A DNA stretch of 64,000 nucleotides from a virus (taxonomy: Duplodnaviria; Caudoviricetes), in IMG/VR virus record IMGVR_UViG_3300023283_000263, positions 13,760 through 77,759 of that record; one strand, given 5' to 3'. A program made the translations under genes and the position numbers. Shown here in pieces: positions 2,442 through 13,806 of this stretch. The notes under the pieces were generated by a model. It was not told where the DNA came from and made no database searches. It saw nothing but the letters and a program-made list of their open reading frames with translations. The number at the start of each line of letters is the position of its first letter. The first letter of the stretch is position 1.

Positions 2442-2872
2442 CGCCTTGCGTCTACGTCATCGGTTCGATGCGGAATCATCGGATCCCGGAGGTGGCCGAG
2501 CGCCTCGCTGCGATAACCGGGTACGAGCTGTTCGCCGACTGGTACTCGCCGGGACCGGACGCCGACGACCGCTGGAAGGAATACGAGCTGGCGCGCGGGA
2601 GGTCGAGGATCGAGTCGCTGCGCGGGTACCACGCGCGCCACGTCTTCGCGTTCGACAAGCACCACCTCGATCGGTCGAGCGCTTGCGTGCTCGTACTCCC
2701 GGCCGGGAAGTCCGGGCACCTGGAACTCGGCTACATGATCGGGCGAGGCAAGCCGGGGTACATACTGCTCGACGAGGAGGATTCTCGCTACGACGTGATG
2801 TACCAGTTCGCGACCGGCGTCTTCGAGGACATCGAAGAGCTGGCGGCTGAATTAAGGGAGAGATTTCGATGA
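2438..2872 (+). CDS. Nucleoside 2-deoxyribosyltransferase / dNMP N-glycosidase-like protein
   Basis: VYVIGSM start, D..HLDRSSACVLVLPAGKSGHLELGY motif typical of the family. Confidence 0.7.
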   Translation: MTPCVYVIGSMRNHRIPEVAERLAAITGYELFADWYSPGPDADDRWKEYELARGRSRIESLRGYHARHVFAFDKHHLDRSSACVLVLPAGKSGHLELGYMIGRGKPGYILLDEEDSRYDVMYQFATGVFEDIEELAAELRERFR

Positions 2873-3540
2873 AGGACATCGTCCTCGACCACGGGAGCGT
2901 CGAGCTTCTTCGCTCGGTCGGGGACGACCTCGCGGTCGTCAACGCTGCTCGCGTGTCCTTCGGGCGCGAGTCCTCGGCGATCGGGGACCCCGAACGCGGC
3001 TTGATCCGGTACTTGATGCGCGAGCGGCACGGGACGCCGTTCGAGGTGGTGGACCTGACGTTCCGGGTCTCGTGCCCCCTCGCCGTAGCGCGCGAGTGGA
3101 TGCGCCACAGGATCAGCAGCTTCAACGAGGTCTCGGGCAGGTACGTGAAGCTGGAGCCGCTGTTTTACGTGCCCGCCGAGTTTCGTCGTCGGGTCGGGAA
3201 GCCGGGGAGGTACCAGTACGAGCCCGTCGACCCGTCGTCTTCCTCGGCGGCGCAGAAGATGCTCCGGGGCTTCTACGATTATGCTGATCGAGTTTATGAA
3301 GAGCTTTGGTCGCTGGGGGTCGCGCCGGAGCAGGCGCGACTCGTGAACCCTCTCGGTATATACACGGAGTTCATCTACAAGGCGAATCTCCGCTCGTTCC
3401 TCAACTTCACGGAGCTGCGGGCGGCGCCGAACGCGATGGAAGAGATCCGTTGCTACGCGGTCTCGATGGAGAGGATGGCTCGCGAGGTCGCGCCGGAGTG
3501 CCTCGCCGCGTTCGACGCTGCCGGGAGGCGGGCTCCGTGA
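2869..3540 (+). CDS. thyX: FAD-dependent thymidylate synthase
   Basis: ThyX signature RHRISSFNEVSGRY; NAARVS; HGTPFE; NLRSFLNFTELR. Confidence 0.95.
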   Translation: MKDIVLDHGSVELLRSVGDDLAVVNAARVSFGRESSAIGDPERGLIRYLMRERHGTPFEVVDLTFRVSCPLAVAREWMRHRISSFNEVSGRYVKLEPLFYVPAEFRRRVGKPGRYQYEPVDPSSSSAAQKMLRGFYDYADRVYEELWSLGVAPEQARLVNPLGIYTEFIYKANLRSFLNFTELRAAPNAMEEIRCYAVSMERMAREVAPECLAAFDAAGRRAP

Positions 3541-4457
3541 GCAGGCTCGCCGAGTCTCTCGCGAAGCGCCGCGACGGGCCCGAGGACCGGGTCGCGTTTC
3601 ACCTTCATCGGTACCTGGCGGGCCGCGACCGGGCGCGGTCGCCGAAGGTGATCCATGCTTCGGACGCGACGAGAGAGGACTTCTGCCCGCGCCGGCAGGC
3701 GCTCCTCGTGCTGACGAAGACGCCGGAGCGTACGCAGTTCGTCCACACGGCCCAGCGACTCGTGTGGGCGCAAGGCAACGCGATCGCGTCTCAGGTCGTA
3801 CGATGGGCCGTGAACGCCGGGATCTGCGTCGGGGCGTGGCATTGCCCTGACTGCGGGTTCGAGGTCGAGTTCGGGCGGCGCCCCCCGCGCTGCTCGAAGT
3901 GCGGCGGGTCTCGATTCTCCTACCGCGAGGTGCGCTTCCAGTCCGAGGACTGCGGGGTATCGGGCGGTATGGATCTCCTCGTCGACCTACCGACGCGCAA
4001 GCGTTATCTGGTGGTCGAGCTGAAGACGATCGACAAGTTGGAGTTCCAGAGGCTCAAGATGCCGCTGGCGGAGCACCGGCAGAGGACGCAGCTCTACTTA
4101 CGGTGCATCGCGGAGAGCGACAGCCCTCACAAGCACCTGGTCGATCAGGACCGCGCGCGCGTGCTCTACGTCTCCAAGGGCGGGTACGGCGAGCGGTCTT
4201 CGCTTCCGCGGGAGTGGGGTATCCGCGACGGCGGGTGGACGCCGTTCAAGGAGTACGAGGTGCGGCGCGACGACGAGGCCGTGGACGACATCGCCGACGC
4301 GGCTCGTCCGCTCCACCGCTGGCTCCGGGGCGATGGAGGGCTACCGTCCGGCGTGTGCCCGAGCGCGGTGTGCGACCGCGCGCAGCGGTGCGAGGTGGTG
4401 GGGCCCTGCTTCTCAGGAGACTACCCCGCGGGGGAGCACAGGAGGTTCGCTGGATGA
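3537..4457 (+). CDS. Cas4-like PD-(D/E)XK exonuclease
   Basis: HASD...FCPR, SGGMDLL, VVELKT, QLYL, C-terminal Cys cluster; internal CxxC...CxxC. Confidence 0.75.
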   Translation: MSRLAESLAKRRDGPEDRVAFHLHRYLAGRDRARSPKVIHASDATREDFCPRRQALLVLTKTPERTQFVHTAQRLVWAQGNAIASQVVRWAVNAGICVGAWHCPDCGFEVEFGRRPPRCSKCGGSRFSYREVRFQSEDCGVSGGMDLLVDLPTRKRYLVVELKTIDKLEFQRLKMPLAEHRQRTQLYLRCIAESDSPHKHLVDQDRARVLYVSKGGYGERSSLPREWGIRDGGWTPFKEYEVRRDDEAVDDIADAARPLHRWLRGDGGLPSGVCPSAVCDRAQRCEVVGPCFSGDYPAGEHRRFAG

Positions 4458-9219: not shown

Positions 9220-11322
9220 GTGGGCGAGCAGACCAGCGATCGACTCGACGAGGCCGGGGTCCCGCGCCGGCGCGGTCGAGCGCAGAAGGAGGCGGAAGAC
9301 TCCGGTCCGCGCGTCGTTTTCTTGCGGCCTCATGCTCGCGCTCTCCGCGAGGCGGCGGAGGCCGGTCAGGTGTTCGGCGTCGAGGCGGTCGAGTCCCTGA
9401 GGCCCGGTCGCGCCGGCGGCGAGACCATCATCGCGAGGAACCCGGAGACCGGCGAGACCGTAGAGCGCCGCAAGATCGACCCCGGCTCCCCGATCCAGGG
9501 GAGCGACGCCCGGGCCGAGGAAGACGAGTTCGTCCGCACCTCGACCGGCCAGACCGTCGGTCAGCAGGTCACGGCGCTGGAGCCGCCGTTCTCGTTCCGC
9601 GAGCTGGAGACGCTCGTTCAGCGCAACAGCATCCTCCCGCTTCTGATCGACGCGATGGAGGTGAACGCAGACGGGACGGGGTGGGACATCGAGCCGGCCG
9701 ACCTCATGCACCCGACGCTCGGAGGCGAGGGGGGCGGTCTCCAGAGGCGCGGGCCCGGCGACGCGGACTTCGACCCCGACGACGCGGAACTGAACGAAGA
9801 GATCGAGCCGGAGGAGCTGGAGAAGAGGAAGCGCGCGGTCGAGGCGTTCTTCGACGAGCCGTGGCCGCAGACGTCGTTCCTCCCGATCCGCAGGCGCCTC
9901 CGGAGAGACCTGGAGACGGTCGGCAACGCCTACATGGAGTGCCTCTTCAACGCCGCCGACGAGTTGGTTTTCTGTCGCCGCCTCGACCCGAAGTCGATGC
10001 GGTTGATCAAGCTGCAGGACGAGGACAAGGTCGAACGCGCGCTGGAGGTCGACCGGGACGGCGAGCGCGTGGAGATCACGGCGTCCGTTCGCGAGCGCCG
10101 GTTCGTCCAGATCGTCGGCGGCAAGCACATCTACTTCGCCGAGCTGGGCGCGGCCCGCGACCTGGACAAGGAAAGCGGCGAGTGGTCGGAAGGCGGTCCC
10201 GCGAAGGACGGCGACCGCCTGGACTTCGACAAGCGCGCGACCCAGGTCGTCCACTTCAAGCTCAAGGACGACGTCGCGACCCCCTACGGGTTGCCTCGGT
10301 GGATCAGCAACGCGCCTTCCATCGTCGGGTCCCGCCTGGCGGAAGAGTTCAACCTGGAGTTCTTCGACGCCGGGGGCGTGCCTCCTCTCCTCATCATCGT
10401 CTCCGGCGGGCGCATGGCGGCGAAGGCCGAGCAGTCGCTTCGCCAGCACTTCATGGCGAGCGGGCCCGACCGGCACCAGGCGGCCGTGATGGAGGCGTTC
10501 GCCACGGAGGGGGACGTCGACACGGCGTCGAAAGTGGAGGTCCAGGTCGAGCGGTTCGGCTCCGAGCAGCAACGGGACAGCATGTTCGAGGGCTACATCG
10601 AGAAGTCGGAGAGGCGCGTCCAGCGCGCGTTCAGGCTCCCCGACCTCTTCACCGGCCAGGGCGAGCGCACGAACTTCGCGACCGCGTTCGCGAGTATGCT
10701 CGTCGCTGAAGCGCAGGTGTTTCAGACCGAGCGCGCGGAGTTCGACGAGGTCGTCAATCTCAAGATCCTGCCGCGTCTCAGGTGGGGCGAGCAGTTCGTC
10801 TTTAAGTCCCGGCCTCTCTCGGTGCGGGACGTGACGCAGCAGCTCGCGGCGTTGAGTATCGTGCTCGGGGCCGGCATCGCGGACGCGGAGAGCGTGCTGG
10901 AGAACGTCAACACCGTCACCGGGCTCGCGCTGCGGCCGGCCGGGGAGGAGGACGACCAGGCCGGCGCCGGCGGCGGGGGGAGCAGGATCGACGGCGGCAG
11001 GCCCGGCGACGCGCGCGGGCGCGGCCCGAGGACGCGGGCTCGGTCCGACGGCGCACCTGCTCTGAAGCTGGGGGCCGAGGTGGAGCTGGCCGCGCTCGCG
11101 CGATCCGTCGCCGAGTACCTGGAGGCCGGCGCCGTAGGCGGCGACGAGTGGCTGGAAGTCAGGGCGAAGCTCGACGCGCTCCGCGGGGAGGAGGTCCGGG
11201 TGTTTCGGCAGAAGCTCGCGACCGTGCTGTACCCGGCTCTGAAGTACGATCCGATGGGGGCGGAGGAGCTGGCGACGGGCGTGCTCGCGATCCTGGGGCT
11301 CGGACGTGACCGCCCCGCTTAG
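9220..11322 (+). CDS. Phage portal protein (PBSX/XkdE-like)
   Basis: GTG with AAGGAGG RBS; RRDLETVGNAYME, LDPKSMRL, YGLPRWIS, N..FFDAGGVPPLLIIVSGG. Confidence 0.85.
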   Translation: MGEQTSDRLDEAGVPRRRGRAQKEAEDSGPRVVFLRPHARALREAAEAGQVFGVEAVESLRPGRAGGETIIARNPETGETVERRKIDPGSPIQGSDARAEEDEFVRTSTGQTVGQQVTALEPPFSFRELETLVQRNSILPLLIDAMEVNADGTGWDIEPADLMHPTLGGEGGGLQRRGPGDADFDPDDAELNEEIEPEELEKRKRAVEAFFDEPWPQTSFLPIRRRLRRDLETVGNAYMECLFNAADELVFCRRLDPKSMRLIKLQDEDKVERALEVDRDGERVEITASVRERRFVQIVGGKHIYFAELGAARDLDKESGEWSEGGPAKDGDRLDFDKRATQVVHFKLKDDVATPYGLPRWISNAPSIVGSRLAEEFNLEFFDAGGVPPLLIIVSGGRMAAKAEQSLRQHFMASGPDRHQAAVMEAFATEGDVDTASKVEVQVERFGSEQQRDSMFEGYIEKSERRVQRAFRLPDLFTGQGERTNFATAFASMLVAEAQVFQTERAEFDEVVNLKILPRLRWGEQFVFKSRPLSVRDVTQQLAALSIVLGAGIADAESVLENVNTVTGLALRPAGEEDDQAGAGGGGSRIDGGRPGDARGRGPRTRARSDGAPALKLGAEVELAALARSVAEYLEAGAVGGDEWLEVRAKLDALRGEEVRVFRQKLATVLYPALKYDPMGAEELATGVLAILGLGRDRPA

Positions 11323-13168
11323 CGTCGGCGAGCGCTTTGACCCGGGGGCTCGCAGCGTTCGGCCGTCGGCGCGATCGTTCCTGACGCTGGAGATCACGAT
11401 CCGCAAGCGCCTGGAGCGACGCTGGTTGGAGCAGGTAGCGAGGCCGGCGCAGCGGAGGATCCGGCGCGCGGTCGCGCGCCGCGACTTCGACGCTGCCAGG
11501 GACGCGGCCCGCGCGATCTCTTTCGACCCGGTGATCGAGGGCCAGGAGGGGTTCCTCCGCACGATGGCGCTGTCGGCGGTCGTGCTCGGGGCTTCTTTCT
11601 TCTCCGGCGACGCGAGCGATACCGTGTTCGTCGACGGAGGGGTCCCCGAGGAGGCGGAGATCGCGGCGAGCGCGCTCCTCGGCTTCCTGCAGGACGGCGC
11701 GGCCGAAAGCGTCCGGGAGGAGGCCCTGCGCCTGATCGACGCCGTCGAGGCCGCGGTCGCGGCGGATAGGTTCAAGCAGGACGAGATCGACGTCGCCCCG
11801 GAGACGCCTGCGGGCCTGCGCCGAGCGCTGCAATCCATCGCCGAGCCGAGTCCAGAGAGTCGCCCCCCGATAGTGGCGAGTCCTCGGGATTTCGCGACTC
11901 GGCTCAACCGGGCCGTCGCGCGCGGCGGGATCCAGGGTACCGGCATCGGCGCGAACCTGTCGACGAGTCGGCTGATCCAGTTCGGGGCCCTCGCCCAGGC
12001 CGAGGCGCAGGGCGAGCAGAGCTATCAGATCACGGAGATTCTCGACGATCGGACTTGTCCTTTTTGCCGGGGGATGCACGGTAAGGTGTTCGAGGTCGCC
12101 CCGGCGCAGGACAGGCTCTTCCGCCAGCTCAGGGAGACGGACCCTCTGGCGCTGAAGTCGGCGTTCCCATTCCCGTCGACGAATCAGGCAGCCATCGCCG
12201 CGTTCTCGCGTCTCTCGAACGACCAGCTGCGAGAACTCGGCCATGACACGCCCCCGTATCATCCCTGGTGTCTACCTGGGGACGCTCGTATAGCGTCCTG
12301 TGGTCCGATCGCGGGCGAGAGTCGTCGCTGGTTCGATGGTCAGCTCGTCGTCGTCGACACGGCCCGAGGCAACCACCTCCGCCTGACCCCGAACCACCCG
12401 GTACTCACGGATCGCGGATGGGTCGCGGCGGGCTCGCTCGATGAACGCGACCGCGTAGTCGAATGTCGCGGCGTCCAGGGGCCGGAACGCCGTCTGGTGC
12501 CAGAGCATCAGGACGTCCCACCCACCGCGGAGCAGGTGTTCGAGGCGTTTCGGCGTTCTAGCGGCGTGACGACCCGAGAAGTGCCAGGAACCCCTGAATA
12601 CTTCCACGGCGACGGGCGCCGCGGCGAGGTCGACGTTGTACGGGCCGATCGCCTTCTGGGGCACGACGTCGGACACGCCGCGGTTTTCGAGTGCGCGCAT
12701 TACGGCTCTCTCCAGATCGCTGCTGCGCGGGCGCTGTTCGCGCGTTTGCGCGCGTTTGCAGAGGGAATCTACGGAGTGGCGCGAGCCGCGCGAGGCGCGA
12801 TGGGCGGCTTCGACCTGGCGCCGGCGTTCGCGGTTGCTCATGCGCTTCCATCGTGCCCTCACGGCGTTGCTCCGGCTTCGCACGACGCCGGCGGCGCGGA
12901 GGAATCGGAGCACCGTGGTCTTCGAGACGCCGAGATTCTGCCCGATCTTGCTCGCCGGTTCCCCGGACGAGTAGCGTTCGACCACGTCGTCGGGGTCCGG
13001 CGGGAGCCATTTTCGGGCCAGGTATACAACCTCGAAACCGAGGACGGCTATTATGTAGCGGACTCGATAGTGGTGAGTAACTGCCGCGGAACCGTCGTCT
13101 CCGTCGGGACCGTCCCCGACGAGCAGATCACCGGCTTCCAGCCCGTCAGGGGCGCGATTCCGGTCTGA
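11306..13168 (+). CDS. MuF / SPP1 gp7-like head morphogenesis protein, intein-containing
   Basis: LDDRTCPFCRGMHG and PPYHPW|CRG motif, the latter interrupted by a Hint domain. Confidence 0.85.
   Translation: MTAPLSVGERFDPGARSVRPSARSFLTLEITIRKRLERRWLEQVARPAQRRIRRAVARRDFDAARDAARAISFDPVIEGQEGFLRTMALSAVVLGASFFSGDASDTVFVDGGVPEEAEIAASALLGFLQDGAAESVREEALRLIDAVEAAVAADRFKQDEIDVAPETPAGLRRALQSIAEPSPESRPPIVASPRDFATRLNRAVARGGIQGTGIGANLSTSRLIQFGALAQAEAQGEQSYQITEILDDRTCPFCRGMHGKVFEVAPAQDRLFRQLRETDPLALKSAFPFPSTNQAAIAAFSRLSNDQLRELGHDTPPYHPWCLPGDARIASCGPIAGESRRWFDGQLVVVDTARGNHLRLTPNHPVLTDRGWVAAGSLDERDRVVECRGVQGPERRLVPEHQDVPPTAEQVFEAFRRSSGVTTREVPGTPEYFHGDGRRGEVDVVRADRLLGHDVGHAAVFECAHYGSLQIAAARALFARLRAFAEGIYGVARAARGAMGGFDLAPAFAVAHALPSCPHGVAPASHDAGGAEESEHRGLRDAEILPDLARRFPGRVAFDHVVGVRREPFSGQVYNLETEDGYYVADSIVVSNCRGTVVSVGTVPDEQITGFQPVRGAIPV
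12269..13081 (+). mobile_element. Intein (271 aa) inserted in the HPWCR motif of the MuF-like protein
   Basis: Cys1 block A CLPGDARI, block B LTPNHPVLT, block F VYNLETEDGYYVAD, terminal Ser-Asn followed by Cys+1. Confidence 0.9.
12272..12985 (-). CDS. HTH plus Vsr/DUF559-like endonuclease encoded antisense within the intein
   Basis: HTH YSSGEPASKIGQNLGVSKTTVLRFLRAAGV; nuclease motifs SDLERAV, IGPYNVDLA, VEVFRGSWH, LLRGGWDVLMLW. Confidence 0.8.
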   Translation of the reverse strand: MVERYSSGEPASKIGQNLGVSKTTVLRFLRAAGVVRSRSNAVRARWKRMSNRERRRQVEAAHRASRGSRHSVDSLCKRAQTREQRPRSSDLERAVMRALENRGVSDVVPQKAIGPYNVDLAAAPVAVEVFRGSWHFSGRHAARTPKRLEHLLRGGWDVLMLWHQTAFRPLDAATFDYAVAFIERARRDPSAIREYRVVRGQAEVVASGRVDDDELTIEPATTLARDRTTGRYTSVPR

Positions 13169-13597: not shown

Positions 13598-13806
13598 CGT
13601 TCGACACCGTCCGCGATGAGGCAGAGTACCAGGCCGCTCTCCACGCGCTGCGTCTCGTCCACGCTCTCGCTGAGGTCGACGAGGCGCTTCGGGCCAAGCT
13701 GAAGTACGAGGACCCGAGTGAAGAAACGAGGACGGCCCTCGAAGGGGTTCGATCGGTTCTCCGCGACGGCGTCGCCGGCCTGCCCGAGAGCGTGGTCTGG
13801 CTCTAG
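13582..13806 (+). CDS. Hypothetical protein
   Basis: GTG preceded by AGGAGG. Confidence 0.55.
   Translation: MQVILTFDTVRDEAEYQAALHALRLVHALAEVDEALRAKLKYEDPSEETRTALEGVRSVLRDGVAGLPESVVWL

Follow-up and report, generated by a model that had tools for sequence, protein, structure and literature searches.

Can a single stretch of phage DNA encode an intein on one strand and, codon for codon, a homing endonuclease on the other? The question is raised by a 64,000-nucleotide (nt) stretch of an uncultivated phage genome (IMG/VR record IMGVR_UViG_3300023283_000263, positions 13,760 to 77,759), which was analysed as a whole and is called the window here; positions refer to it unless another locus is named. 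A gene for a MuF/gp7-like head-morphogenesis (minor capsid) protein lies on its plus strand at 11306..13168, an open reading frame (ORF) of 620 codons that includes an intein of 271 amino acids (12269..13081). The minus strand of the intein is open as well and specifies a putative homing endonuclease (12272..12985). From comparison with related loci and from structure models, we consider it very probable that the locus is a mobile class-1 intein in a MuF-like head gene, and that its homing endonuclease is encoded by a gene of its own on the other strand, the codons of which are exactly in register with those of the intein. The host gene gave a weak Pfam match to Phage_Mu_F and a match to PHROG 15127 ("head protein") at 7.5e-32. 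The source record comprises 77,759 bases with terminal repeats and holds the antisense nuclease gene in a single copy; the genome of the window shows only distant similarity to Rhizobium and Rhodobacter phages.

A conserved open frame on the antisense strand

The antisense ORF, of 237 amino acids plus a TAG stop, starts with GTG at 12985 on the minus strand. Its stop codon (12274-12272) is the complement of the CTA codon for Leu2 of the intein, and its codons are aligned with those of the sense frame. Reading of the sequence confirmed both points, which had been made in an initial annotation of the locus. The antisense frame at the intein is stop-free for 312 codons in all. In the window, this openness must be set against its being a gene: the exteins hold not one TTA, CTA or TCA codon in 370 (the sole such codon of the whole gene is intein codon 2), so that an open, codon-aligned antisense frame is expected from the composition of this DNA, which is 69% GC over the whole window. 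The first internal sign of the antisense frame as the real one is a flip in codon composition in the middle of the intein. Between 12386 and 12985, the GC content of the sense frame is higher at the first codon position (0.83) than at the third (0.69); at the third position of the extein codons it is 0.86.

The case for an antisense gene is carried by comparative evidence, not by the open frame in the window. In 113 of 116 loci, ranging in GC content from 0.43 to 0.74, both strands are stop-free over the whole match, in the same codon register throughout. For the low-GC relatives (0.43-0.51), an antisense run free of stops has a chance probability of 1e-4 to 1e-10 per locus. Conservation of the ORF had been set beforehand as a refuting test; the ORF proved conserved and uninterrupted in about 110 homologous inteins, so that refutation by non-conservation fails.

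Selection on the two frames

Per-position entropy was examined in a codon alignment of 58 sequences. At residues 1-56 and 237-271 of the intein, the third position of the sense codons is the most variable. At residues 57-236 it is the first sense position, equivalent to the third antisense position, that varies most, and conservation is higher for the antisense than for the sense residues. By this measure, the selected frame switches at about residues 57 and 236.

Substitutions were counted in 29 independent sequence pairs and classed by the frame in which they are synonymous. The intein middle (residues 57-236) yielded 962 changes that are synonymous in the antisense frame and alter the sense protein, against 257 that are synonymous in the sense frame and alter the antisense protein (396 expected of each). 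In the two intein ends, the corresponding counts were 203 and 490, with about 217 expected of each. The contrast between middle and ends has a Fisher p of 8e-103. The window itself goes in the same direction: compared with its four nearest relatives, the closest of which has 63% DNA identity, its middle shows 27-31 antisense-synonymous versus 8-16 sense-synonymous changes. These alignments show that the antisense nuclease is under purifying selection in the intein middle. The initial annotation had proposed a comparison of selection in both frames across homologues, and its outcome is that the antisense frame is selected in the middle and the sense frame at the ends.

The same counts bear on an alternative in which the middle of the sense frame encodes a new in-frame endonuclease, or a domain with some other function, and the antisense ORF simply follows from composition. 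The sense frame has to be open in any case, and residues F112, H113, G114, D115 and G116 are conserved in the middle of the intein; however, this conservation mirrors the active-site codons of the nuclease on the opposite strand. Substitutions in the middle are synonymous for the antisense and not for the sense frame, and the antisense frame is open even at a GC content of 0.43-0.51, against the odds per locus given above. In structure models, the pLDDT (predicted local distance difference test) score is 34-63 for the sense middle versus 93 for the antisense protein. An in-frame domain was rejected on entropy, substitution counts and the low pLDDT of the sense middle, and we hold it to be extremely improbable.

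The intein in the sense frame

Sequence motifs, alignment and an AlphaFold2 (AF2) model agree on a class-1 intein at 12269..13081 on the plus strand, inserted in the host-gene motif HP(W)|C..., the counterpart of which in relatives is HPN|CRC. Cys1 is the TGT codon at 12269-12271, the block B motif T40-P-N-H43 occupies 12386-12397, and the C-terminus is Ser-Asn (13076-13081, with Asn271 at 13079-13081), followed by Cys +1 at 13082-13084. The initial annotation had placed a 271-residue intein at this site, in an HPW-CR motif of the MuF/gp7 gene; its coordinates proved exact, and Cys1, block B, Asn271 and Cys +1 were all confirmed. Residues C1, T40, N42, H43 and N271, invariant in an alignment of 54 inteins, are all present in the window. 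A Foldseek search with the sense intein model returned as top matches only intein splicing domains (2imz, 6frg, 4e2t, 1am2), with probability 1.0, while the Pfam Intein_splicing profile scored 21 bits, under its cut-off of 35.8. The element is a class-1 intein by its motifs, with a modelled Hint/splicing-domain fold, and is predicted to splice.

The penultimate His of block G, found in most relatives, is missing from the window, where Ser270 stands in its place, as the initial annotation had noted. Ser is also found at this position in three relatives (L098, L107 and L112), and others have Lys, Gln or Arg. Some inteins splice without a penultimate His, which is thus no absolute requirement.

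The N-terminal splicing region (residues 1-56, blocks A and B; 12269..12436, plus strand) and the C-terminal splicing region (residues 237-271, blocks F and G; 12977..13081, plus strand) are both selected in the sense frame, with observed-to-expected ratios of sense-synonymous changes of 1.97 and 2.70, respectively. Between them, residues 57-236 (12437..12976, plus strand) form a stretch that is read through without stops and is identified as a linker by its substitution pattern and low pLDDT. In the AF2 model, the ends have pLDDT values of 88-98 and residues 107-219 values of 34-63. The data show that the splicing domain is made up of residues 1-56 and 237-271 only, the middle 180 codons being an unstructured linker in the sense frame.

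The antisense protein

A search of a large protein collection returned 49 homologues of the antisense protein, with E-values down to 4e-59; some are named very-short-patch-repair endonuclease in their source. The nuclease core motif in the homologue alignment is PQKAIGPYNVDLA..VAVEVFGG.WH. Residues N117, D119 and E128 do not vary in the alignment, E92 and H135 hardly do, and all five are present in the window (E92 at 12710-12712, D119 at 12629-12631, E128 at 12602-12604 and H135 at 12581-12583, minus strand). Conserved residues and a fold match place the Vsr-like nuclease domain at residues 87-208 (12362..12727, minus strand). It is preceded by a helical part with a helix-turn-helix (HTH) DNA-binding character, residues 1-85 (12731..12985, minus strand), recognized from a Pfam HTH_7 match (5e-4), a profile match to the tandem-HTH structure 2lvs (3.7e-5) and the model helices H2-H84. 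The C-terminal tail (12275..12361, minus strand) lies over intein blocks A and B and is weakly constrained, its antisense residue entropy exceeding the sense entropy. The position of the stop varies among relatives and falls at intein codon 2 in 57 of 93. The overlap with blocks A and B pointed out in the initial annotation is therefore real, but only this weakly constrained tail of the nuclease takes part in it.

The model of the antisense protein has a mean pLDDT of 93.3. Residues 87-208 superimpose on Vsr (1cw0) with a Z-score of 11.0 and a root-mean-square deviation of 2.3 over 113 aligned residues; the corresponding Z-scores are 9.4 for I-Bth0305I (3r3p), 8.8 for a DUF559 protein (3hrl) and at most 6 for unrelated entries. 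Foldseek alone gave weak E-values (best 5e-3), and this second structural comparison was needed to separate the Vsr-like matches. Of the conserved E92, D119 and H135, the latter two coincide, in a profile alignment to 3r3p (E-value 1.7e-3), with the sites of the D196A and H213A mutations in the I-Bth0305I protein that was crystallised; the last Asp of the EDxHD motif was not placed. A point against the assignment is that the Pfam matches of the antisense protein, to HTH_7 and to REase_MTES_1575 (2.4e-5), are both under their gathering cut-offs, the latter scoring 24.7 bits versus a cut-off of 38.2. Several homologues carry precomputed PF18741 or PF04480 matches. By its sequence profile the protein is a distant relative of the REase_MTES_1575/DUF559 group and, by the Pfam rule, not a member. 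Homologues and fold model support the view that the antisense ORF is a real, selected gene for an HTH plus Vsr-like (EDxHD-type) nuclease, with cleavage activity predicted, and the HTH and nuclease parts named in the initial annotation are borne out. Other-frame ORFs of 112-150 amino acids at 12558-13010 (minus strand), 12636-12974 (plus) and 12691-13080 (plus) look like high-GC by-products; no homology signal was seen for any of them, and none was sought.

Candidate expression signals in blocks F and G

The His codon that immediately precedes the block F motif VYNL reads, on the antisense strand, as ATG in 47 of 91 distinct loci and as GTG in another 13 (60 in total). The Asn-Leu-Gln/Glu codons that follow in the relatives are the complement of GGAGG or GAGG, 8 nt upstream of this antisense start. 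In block G, the Ile-Ile or Ile-Val codons are the complement of TATAAT in 28 of 93 loci and of a 5-of-6 match in 26 more, often after TGT; the relatives' block G complement reads as a TATAAT or TACAAT -10-like box. Codon choice at these residues is skewed. Ile-Ile in block G is written ATT-ATA in 28 of 37 cases (1.9 expected) and Ile-Val is written ATT-GTA in 15 of 27 (0.55 expected). Thr at -3 is ACA in 23 of 50 cases (7.5 expected), the Leu of block F is CTC in 63 of 86 (24.6 expected) and the His before VYNL is CAT in 46 of 58 (22.8 expected). The p-values of these biases are overstated, since related loci were treated as independent; mutual protein identity among the loci is only 30-45%.

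These patterns lead us to favour, by a little, the idea that blocks F and G, the two best-conserved splicing motifs of the intein, contain a whole expression cassette for the nuclease through the choice among synonymous codons. The complement of block G (Gly-Ile-Ile-Thr-His-Asn) would read TGT-TATAAT, an extended -10 promoter, and that of block F (His-Val-Tyr-Asn-Leu-Gln/Glu) would read GGAGG, 8 nt, then ATG. A codon-embedded nuclease expression cassette of this kind is not described in the papers that were searched.

In the window, the usual start signals of the family are degraded, and here several observations speak against an expressed gene. The family's usual antisense start position (13019..13021, minus strand) is occupied by CTG (sense Gln251, CAG) instead of ATG or GTG, and the first in-frame antisense ATG, GTG or TTG is the GTG at 12985, which has no clear Shine-Dalgarno sequence. 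The block G Ile-Val codons (13067..13072, minus strand) have the complement CACTAT, matching the -10 box at 3 of 6 positions. A consensus promoter scan of both strands between 12000 and 13600 found no promoter; the same scan overlooked a TGC-TATAAT box in E. coli phage Snoke because its -35 is poor. A GAGG Shine-Dalgarno-like box, the complement of the Asn254-Leu255 codons, stands 8 nt before the CTG (13030..13033, minus strand). Direct reading also picks out the hexamer CATAAT, 28 nt before the CTG (13050..13055, minus strand), as a candidate alternative -10 box. The CTG start, the poor -10 box and the penultimate Ser suggest that the window nuclease may be weakly expressed or at the start of decay. 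We infer an antisense transcript, as the initial annotation did.

A more drastic possibility is that the antisense gene is a relic in the window phage, the intein splicing and the endonuclease having gone unexpressed after fixation, with the ORF held open only by the 69% GC content. The CTG, the CACTAT hexamer and the lack of promoter-like sites in the scanned interval all fit this view, as do the exteins, whose codons leave the frame open by default, and the antisense-synonymous excess, which is weakest against the nearest relative (27 vs 16). Nevertheless, E92, N117, D119, E128 and H135 are all kept, the ORF is without frameshifts, and the third-position GC pattern still tracks the antisense frame. 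The GAGG box is retained at its proper distance from the CTG, and use of the GTG at 12985 would cost only about 14 non-conserved residues. Moreover, the promoters of the window phage's host may deviate from the sigma-70 consensus. On balance, a relic seems a possible but rather doubtful explanation.

Distribution and mobility of the family

By tblastn, the antisense nuclease was found in 113 isolate-phage records, including Salmonella Jerseyvirus, E. coli Kagunavirus, Pseudomonas, Vibrio, Gordonia and other phages; it is also present in 320 IMG/VR contigs and in 30 bacterial genomes or metagenome-assembled genomes (MAGs). Among the tblastn matches listed, all fall under a gene annotated as head-morphogenesis, minor-capsid or structural protein or left unnamed, and in all records examined the nuclease is on the strand opposite the annotated phage gene. 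Since gene finders call only one of two genes that overlap completely, most isolate phages with the nuclease, those of Salmonella and E. coli among them, have it wrongly annotated or not annotated at all. In Salmonella phage PK1 (L003:2402-3211, plus strand), the antisense ORF, which overlaps the head morphogenesis gene, is annotated as a "hypothetical protein"; for several contigs from metagenomes (e.g., L004), the gene caller kept the antisense ORF and dropped MuF.

The inteins of the family are all intact and inserted at HP(N)|C...HN|CRC (about 110 loci). E. coli phage Snoke has the element at HPN|CRS, and K1ind1 and many other Kagunavirus phages are without it. Snoke differs from the intein-less phages by exactly 816 nt between AAT (Asn) and TGT (Cys), in exteins that are about 90% identical. 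Precise, in-frame presence and absence was thus shown among these relatives.

These data bear on a further alternative, in which the antisense protein is real and has another role (in regulation, say, or as a nuclease acting in repair or against competing phages), the intein being a safe harbour for its gene. Its HTH modules do resemble regulators (the protein matches PHROG 5301, "transcriptional repressor", at 0.0055), and it has free-standing relatives outside inteins (L078 and L005; see below). Yet about 110 loci have the gene in the same intein, at one and the same MuF site, and among close relatives the element is either there or missing as a unit. Furthermore, the nearest solved relative, I-Bth0305I, is a proven homing endonuclease (PMC3239194), and transfer patterns have been reported for some of these intein groups (Gosselin, Arsenault and Gogarten, bioRxiv 10.1101/2025.01.02.630785). 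We therefore regard a role other than homing as unlikely.

Several relatives depart from the arrangement in the window. L078 has a free-standing nuclease homologue of 286 amino acids with two HTH units, convergent with an intein-less MuF gene (HPGCRC); the two genes (2809-3669, plus strand, and 3607-4155, minus strand) overlap at their 3' ends by about 60 nt. This arrangement is possibly a picture of the state before entry of the nuclease into an intein. In a Nitrosocosmicus (archaeal) MAG, a free-standing homologue with 31% identity (L005:4001-4708, plus strand) lies beside a DDE transposase gene, and the strand opposite to it is open for only 81 codons. The idea that the Nitrosocosmicus loci L005 and L006 represent a decayed intein was rejected: the N-terminal part of the intein matched the opposite strand at 1.7e-6, the flanking 310-amino-acid gene has no Pfam match, and the intein-like similarity is probably a mirror image of the nuclease homology. 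Longer variants (L004:3674-5044, L116, L108 and L079) have two or three HTH repeats in inteins of 330-451 amino acids, with both strands stop-free over more than 1 kb, even at a GC content of 0.43 (L116). Gordonia phages Angelicage, Affeca, Keitabear and Sedona have in common with the window the N-terminal 130 residues of its intein and not the antisense nuclease. Finally, the DNA of the active-site core (12591-12660) is 79% identical over 70 nt to that of Salmonella Jersey-type phages, the genomes being otherwise unrelated.

Relation to known systems

The layout itself is not new, because the preprint cited above (10.1101/2025.01.02.630785) already reports anti-sense VSR-like endonucleases in full inteins of actinophages, minor capsid proteins included. 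The initial annotation had mentioned similar inteins in actinophage MuF genes, and was correct in this. The likeness extends from the full inteins, the minor capsid (MuF-like) hosts and the antisense Vsr-like ORF to the Z-score of the Vsr match (1CW0; 10.6 there, 11.0 here), the match to 3R3P in both and the in-frame middle without recognisable fold in both. By the criterion of an anti-sense homing endonuclease (HEN) intein, namely an intact antisense endonuclease ORF in a contiguous intein, conserved in relatives, the window element belongs to this class. Whereas the preprint deals with PhagesDB actinophages, the window comes from a 77.8-kb phage that has not been cultivated and that distantly resembles Rhizobium and Rhodobacter phages. 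The architecture is called rare in the preprint, whereas the family described here comprises 320 IMG/VR loci, 113 isolate-phage records and 30 bacterial genomes. The additional ORFs are mostly outside the splicing domain there, whereas that of the window covers almost all of the intein. Neither promoter nor ribosome binding is a term used in the main text of the preprint. What we add is modest: the family's breadth and candidate start signals at the codon level.

Other elements share single features with the window. I-Bth0305I (Taylor et al. 2011, PMC3239194), the prototype of the EDxHD homing endonucleases, resembles the window nuclease in its Vsr-like catalytic domain, where E, D and H are conserved, in having a DNA-binding region at the N-terminus and in being associated with a self-splicing element, but it is located in a group I intron, whereas the window nuclease resides in an intein and has HTH repeats as its DNA-binding part. 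In the "fractured genes" of Dassa et al. (2009, PMC2677866), a nuclease with a Vsr-like catalytic domain is also a separate gene within an intein locus; there it lies between the two halves of a split intein, without double coding, whereas the window has a contiguous intein, in which each codon of the nuclease doubles, on the opposite strand, as a codon of the intein. Antisense LAGLIDADG ORFs in the inteins of Synechocystis DnaX and a Chloroflexus SpoVR-like protein (Gorbalenya 1998; Gogarten et al. 2002, as cited in the preprint) appear from these citations to be alike in having an endonuclease opposite a contiguous intein, and different in nuclease family (LAGLIDADG instead of Vsr-like) and host genes. 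The ShiLan-type insertion (Arsenault et al. 2025, PMC11855218) similarly conceals a homing endonuclease gene in a different frame of an insertion across which the host gene stays open. Its HNH nuclease is out of frame on the same strand and there is no splicing domain; in contrast, the window element is a true intein, predicted to remove the read-through peptide.

A model for the element

The sense strand is read through the entire element. We propose that an antisense transcript would start from a -10 box given by the complement of the block G Ile-Ile or Ile-Val codons (ATT ATA or ATT GTA). This transcript would bear a Shine-Dalgarno sequence (the complement of the block F Asn-Leu-Gln/Glu codons) and a start codon (the complement of the His codon before VYNL). 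The nuclease would cut intein-less MuF alleles at HPN|CRC during co-infection, repair of the cut allele would copy the intein in, and protein splicing would rescue MuF function. As to origin, a free-standing nuclease gene probably entered a mini-intein in inverted orientation. Such backwards entry was proposed in the preprint (10.1101/2025.01.02.630785), and the free-standing homologues of L078 and the Nitrosocosmicus MAG fit it. The arrangement could persist for as long as both frames steer clear of TTA, CTA and TCA codons. The initial reading is supported as a whole, each part of it that was tested having held up.

In the intein family, nature offers a clean example in which about 700-1000 nt code on both strands and the selected frame switches sharply; it can therefore serve as a test for methods of overlapping-gene detection. 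Should the embedded promoter, ribosome binding site and start be real, they show how a selfish gene can draw on codons conserved in its carrier to have itself expressed. Single codons would then tie intein and nuclease to each other, and the disappearance of these signals, as in the window, would be the first step of decay. The state of the signals would also give a simple readout of the place of an element in the homing cycle.

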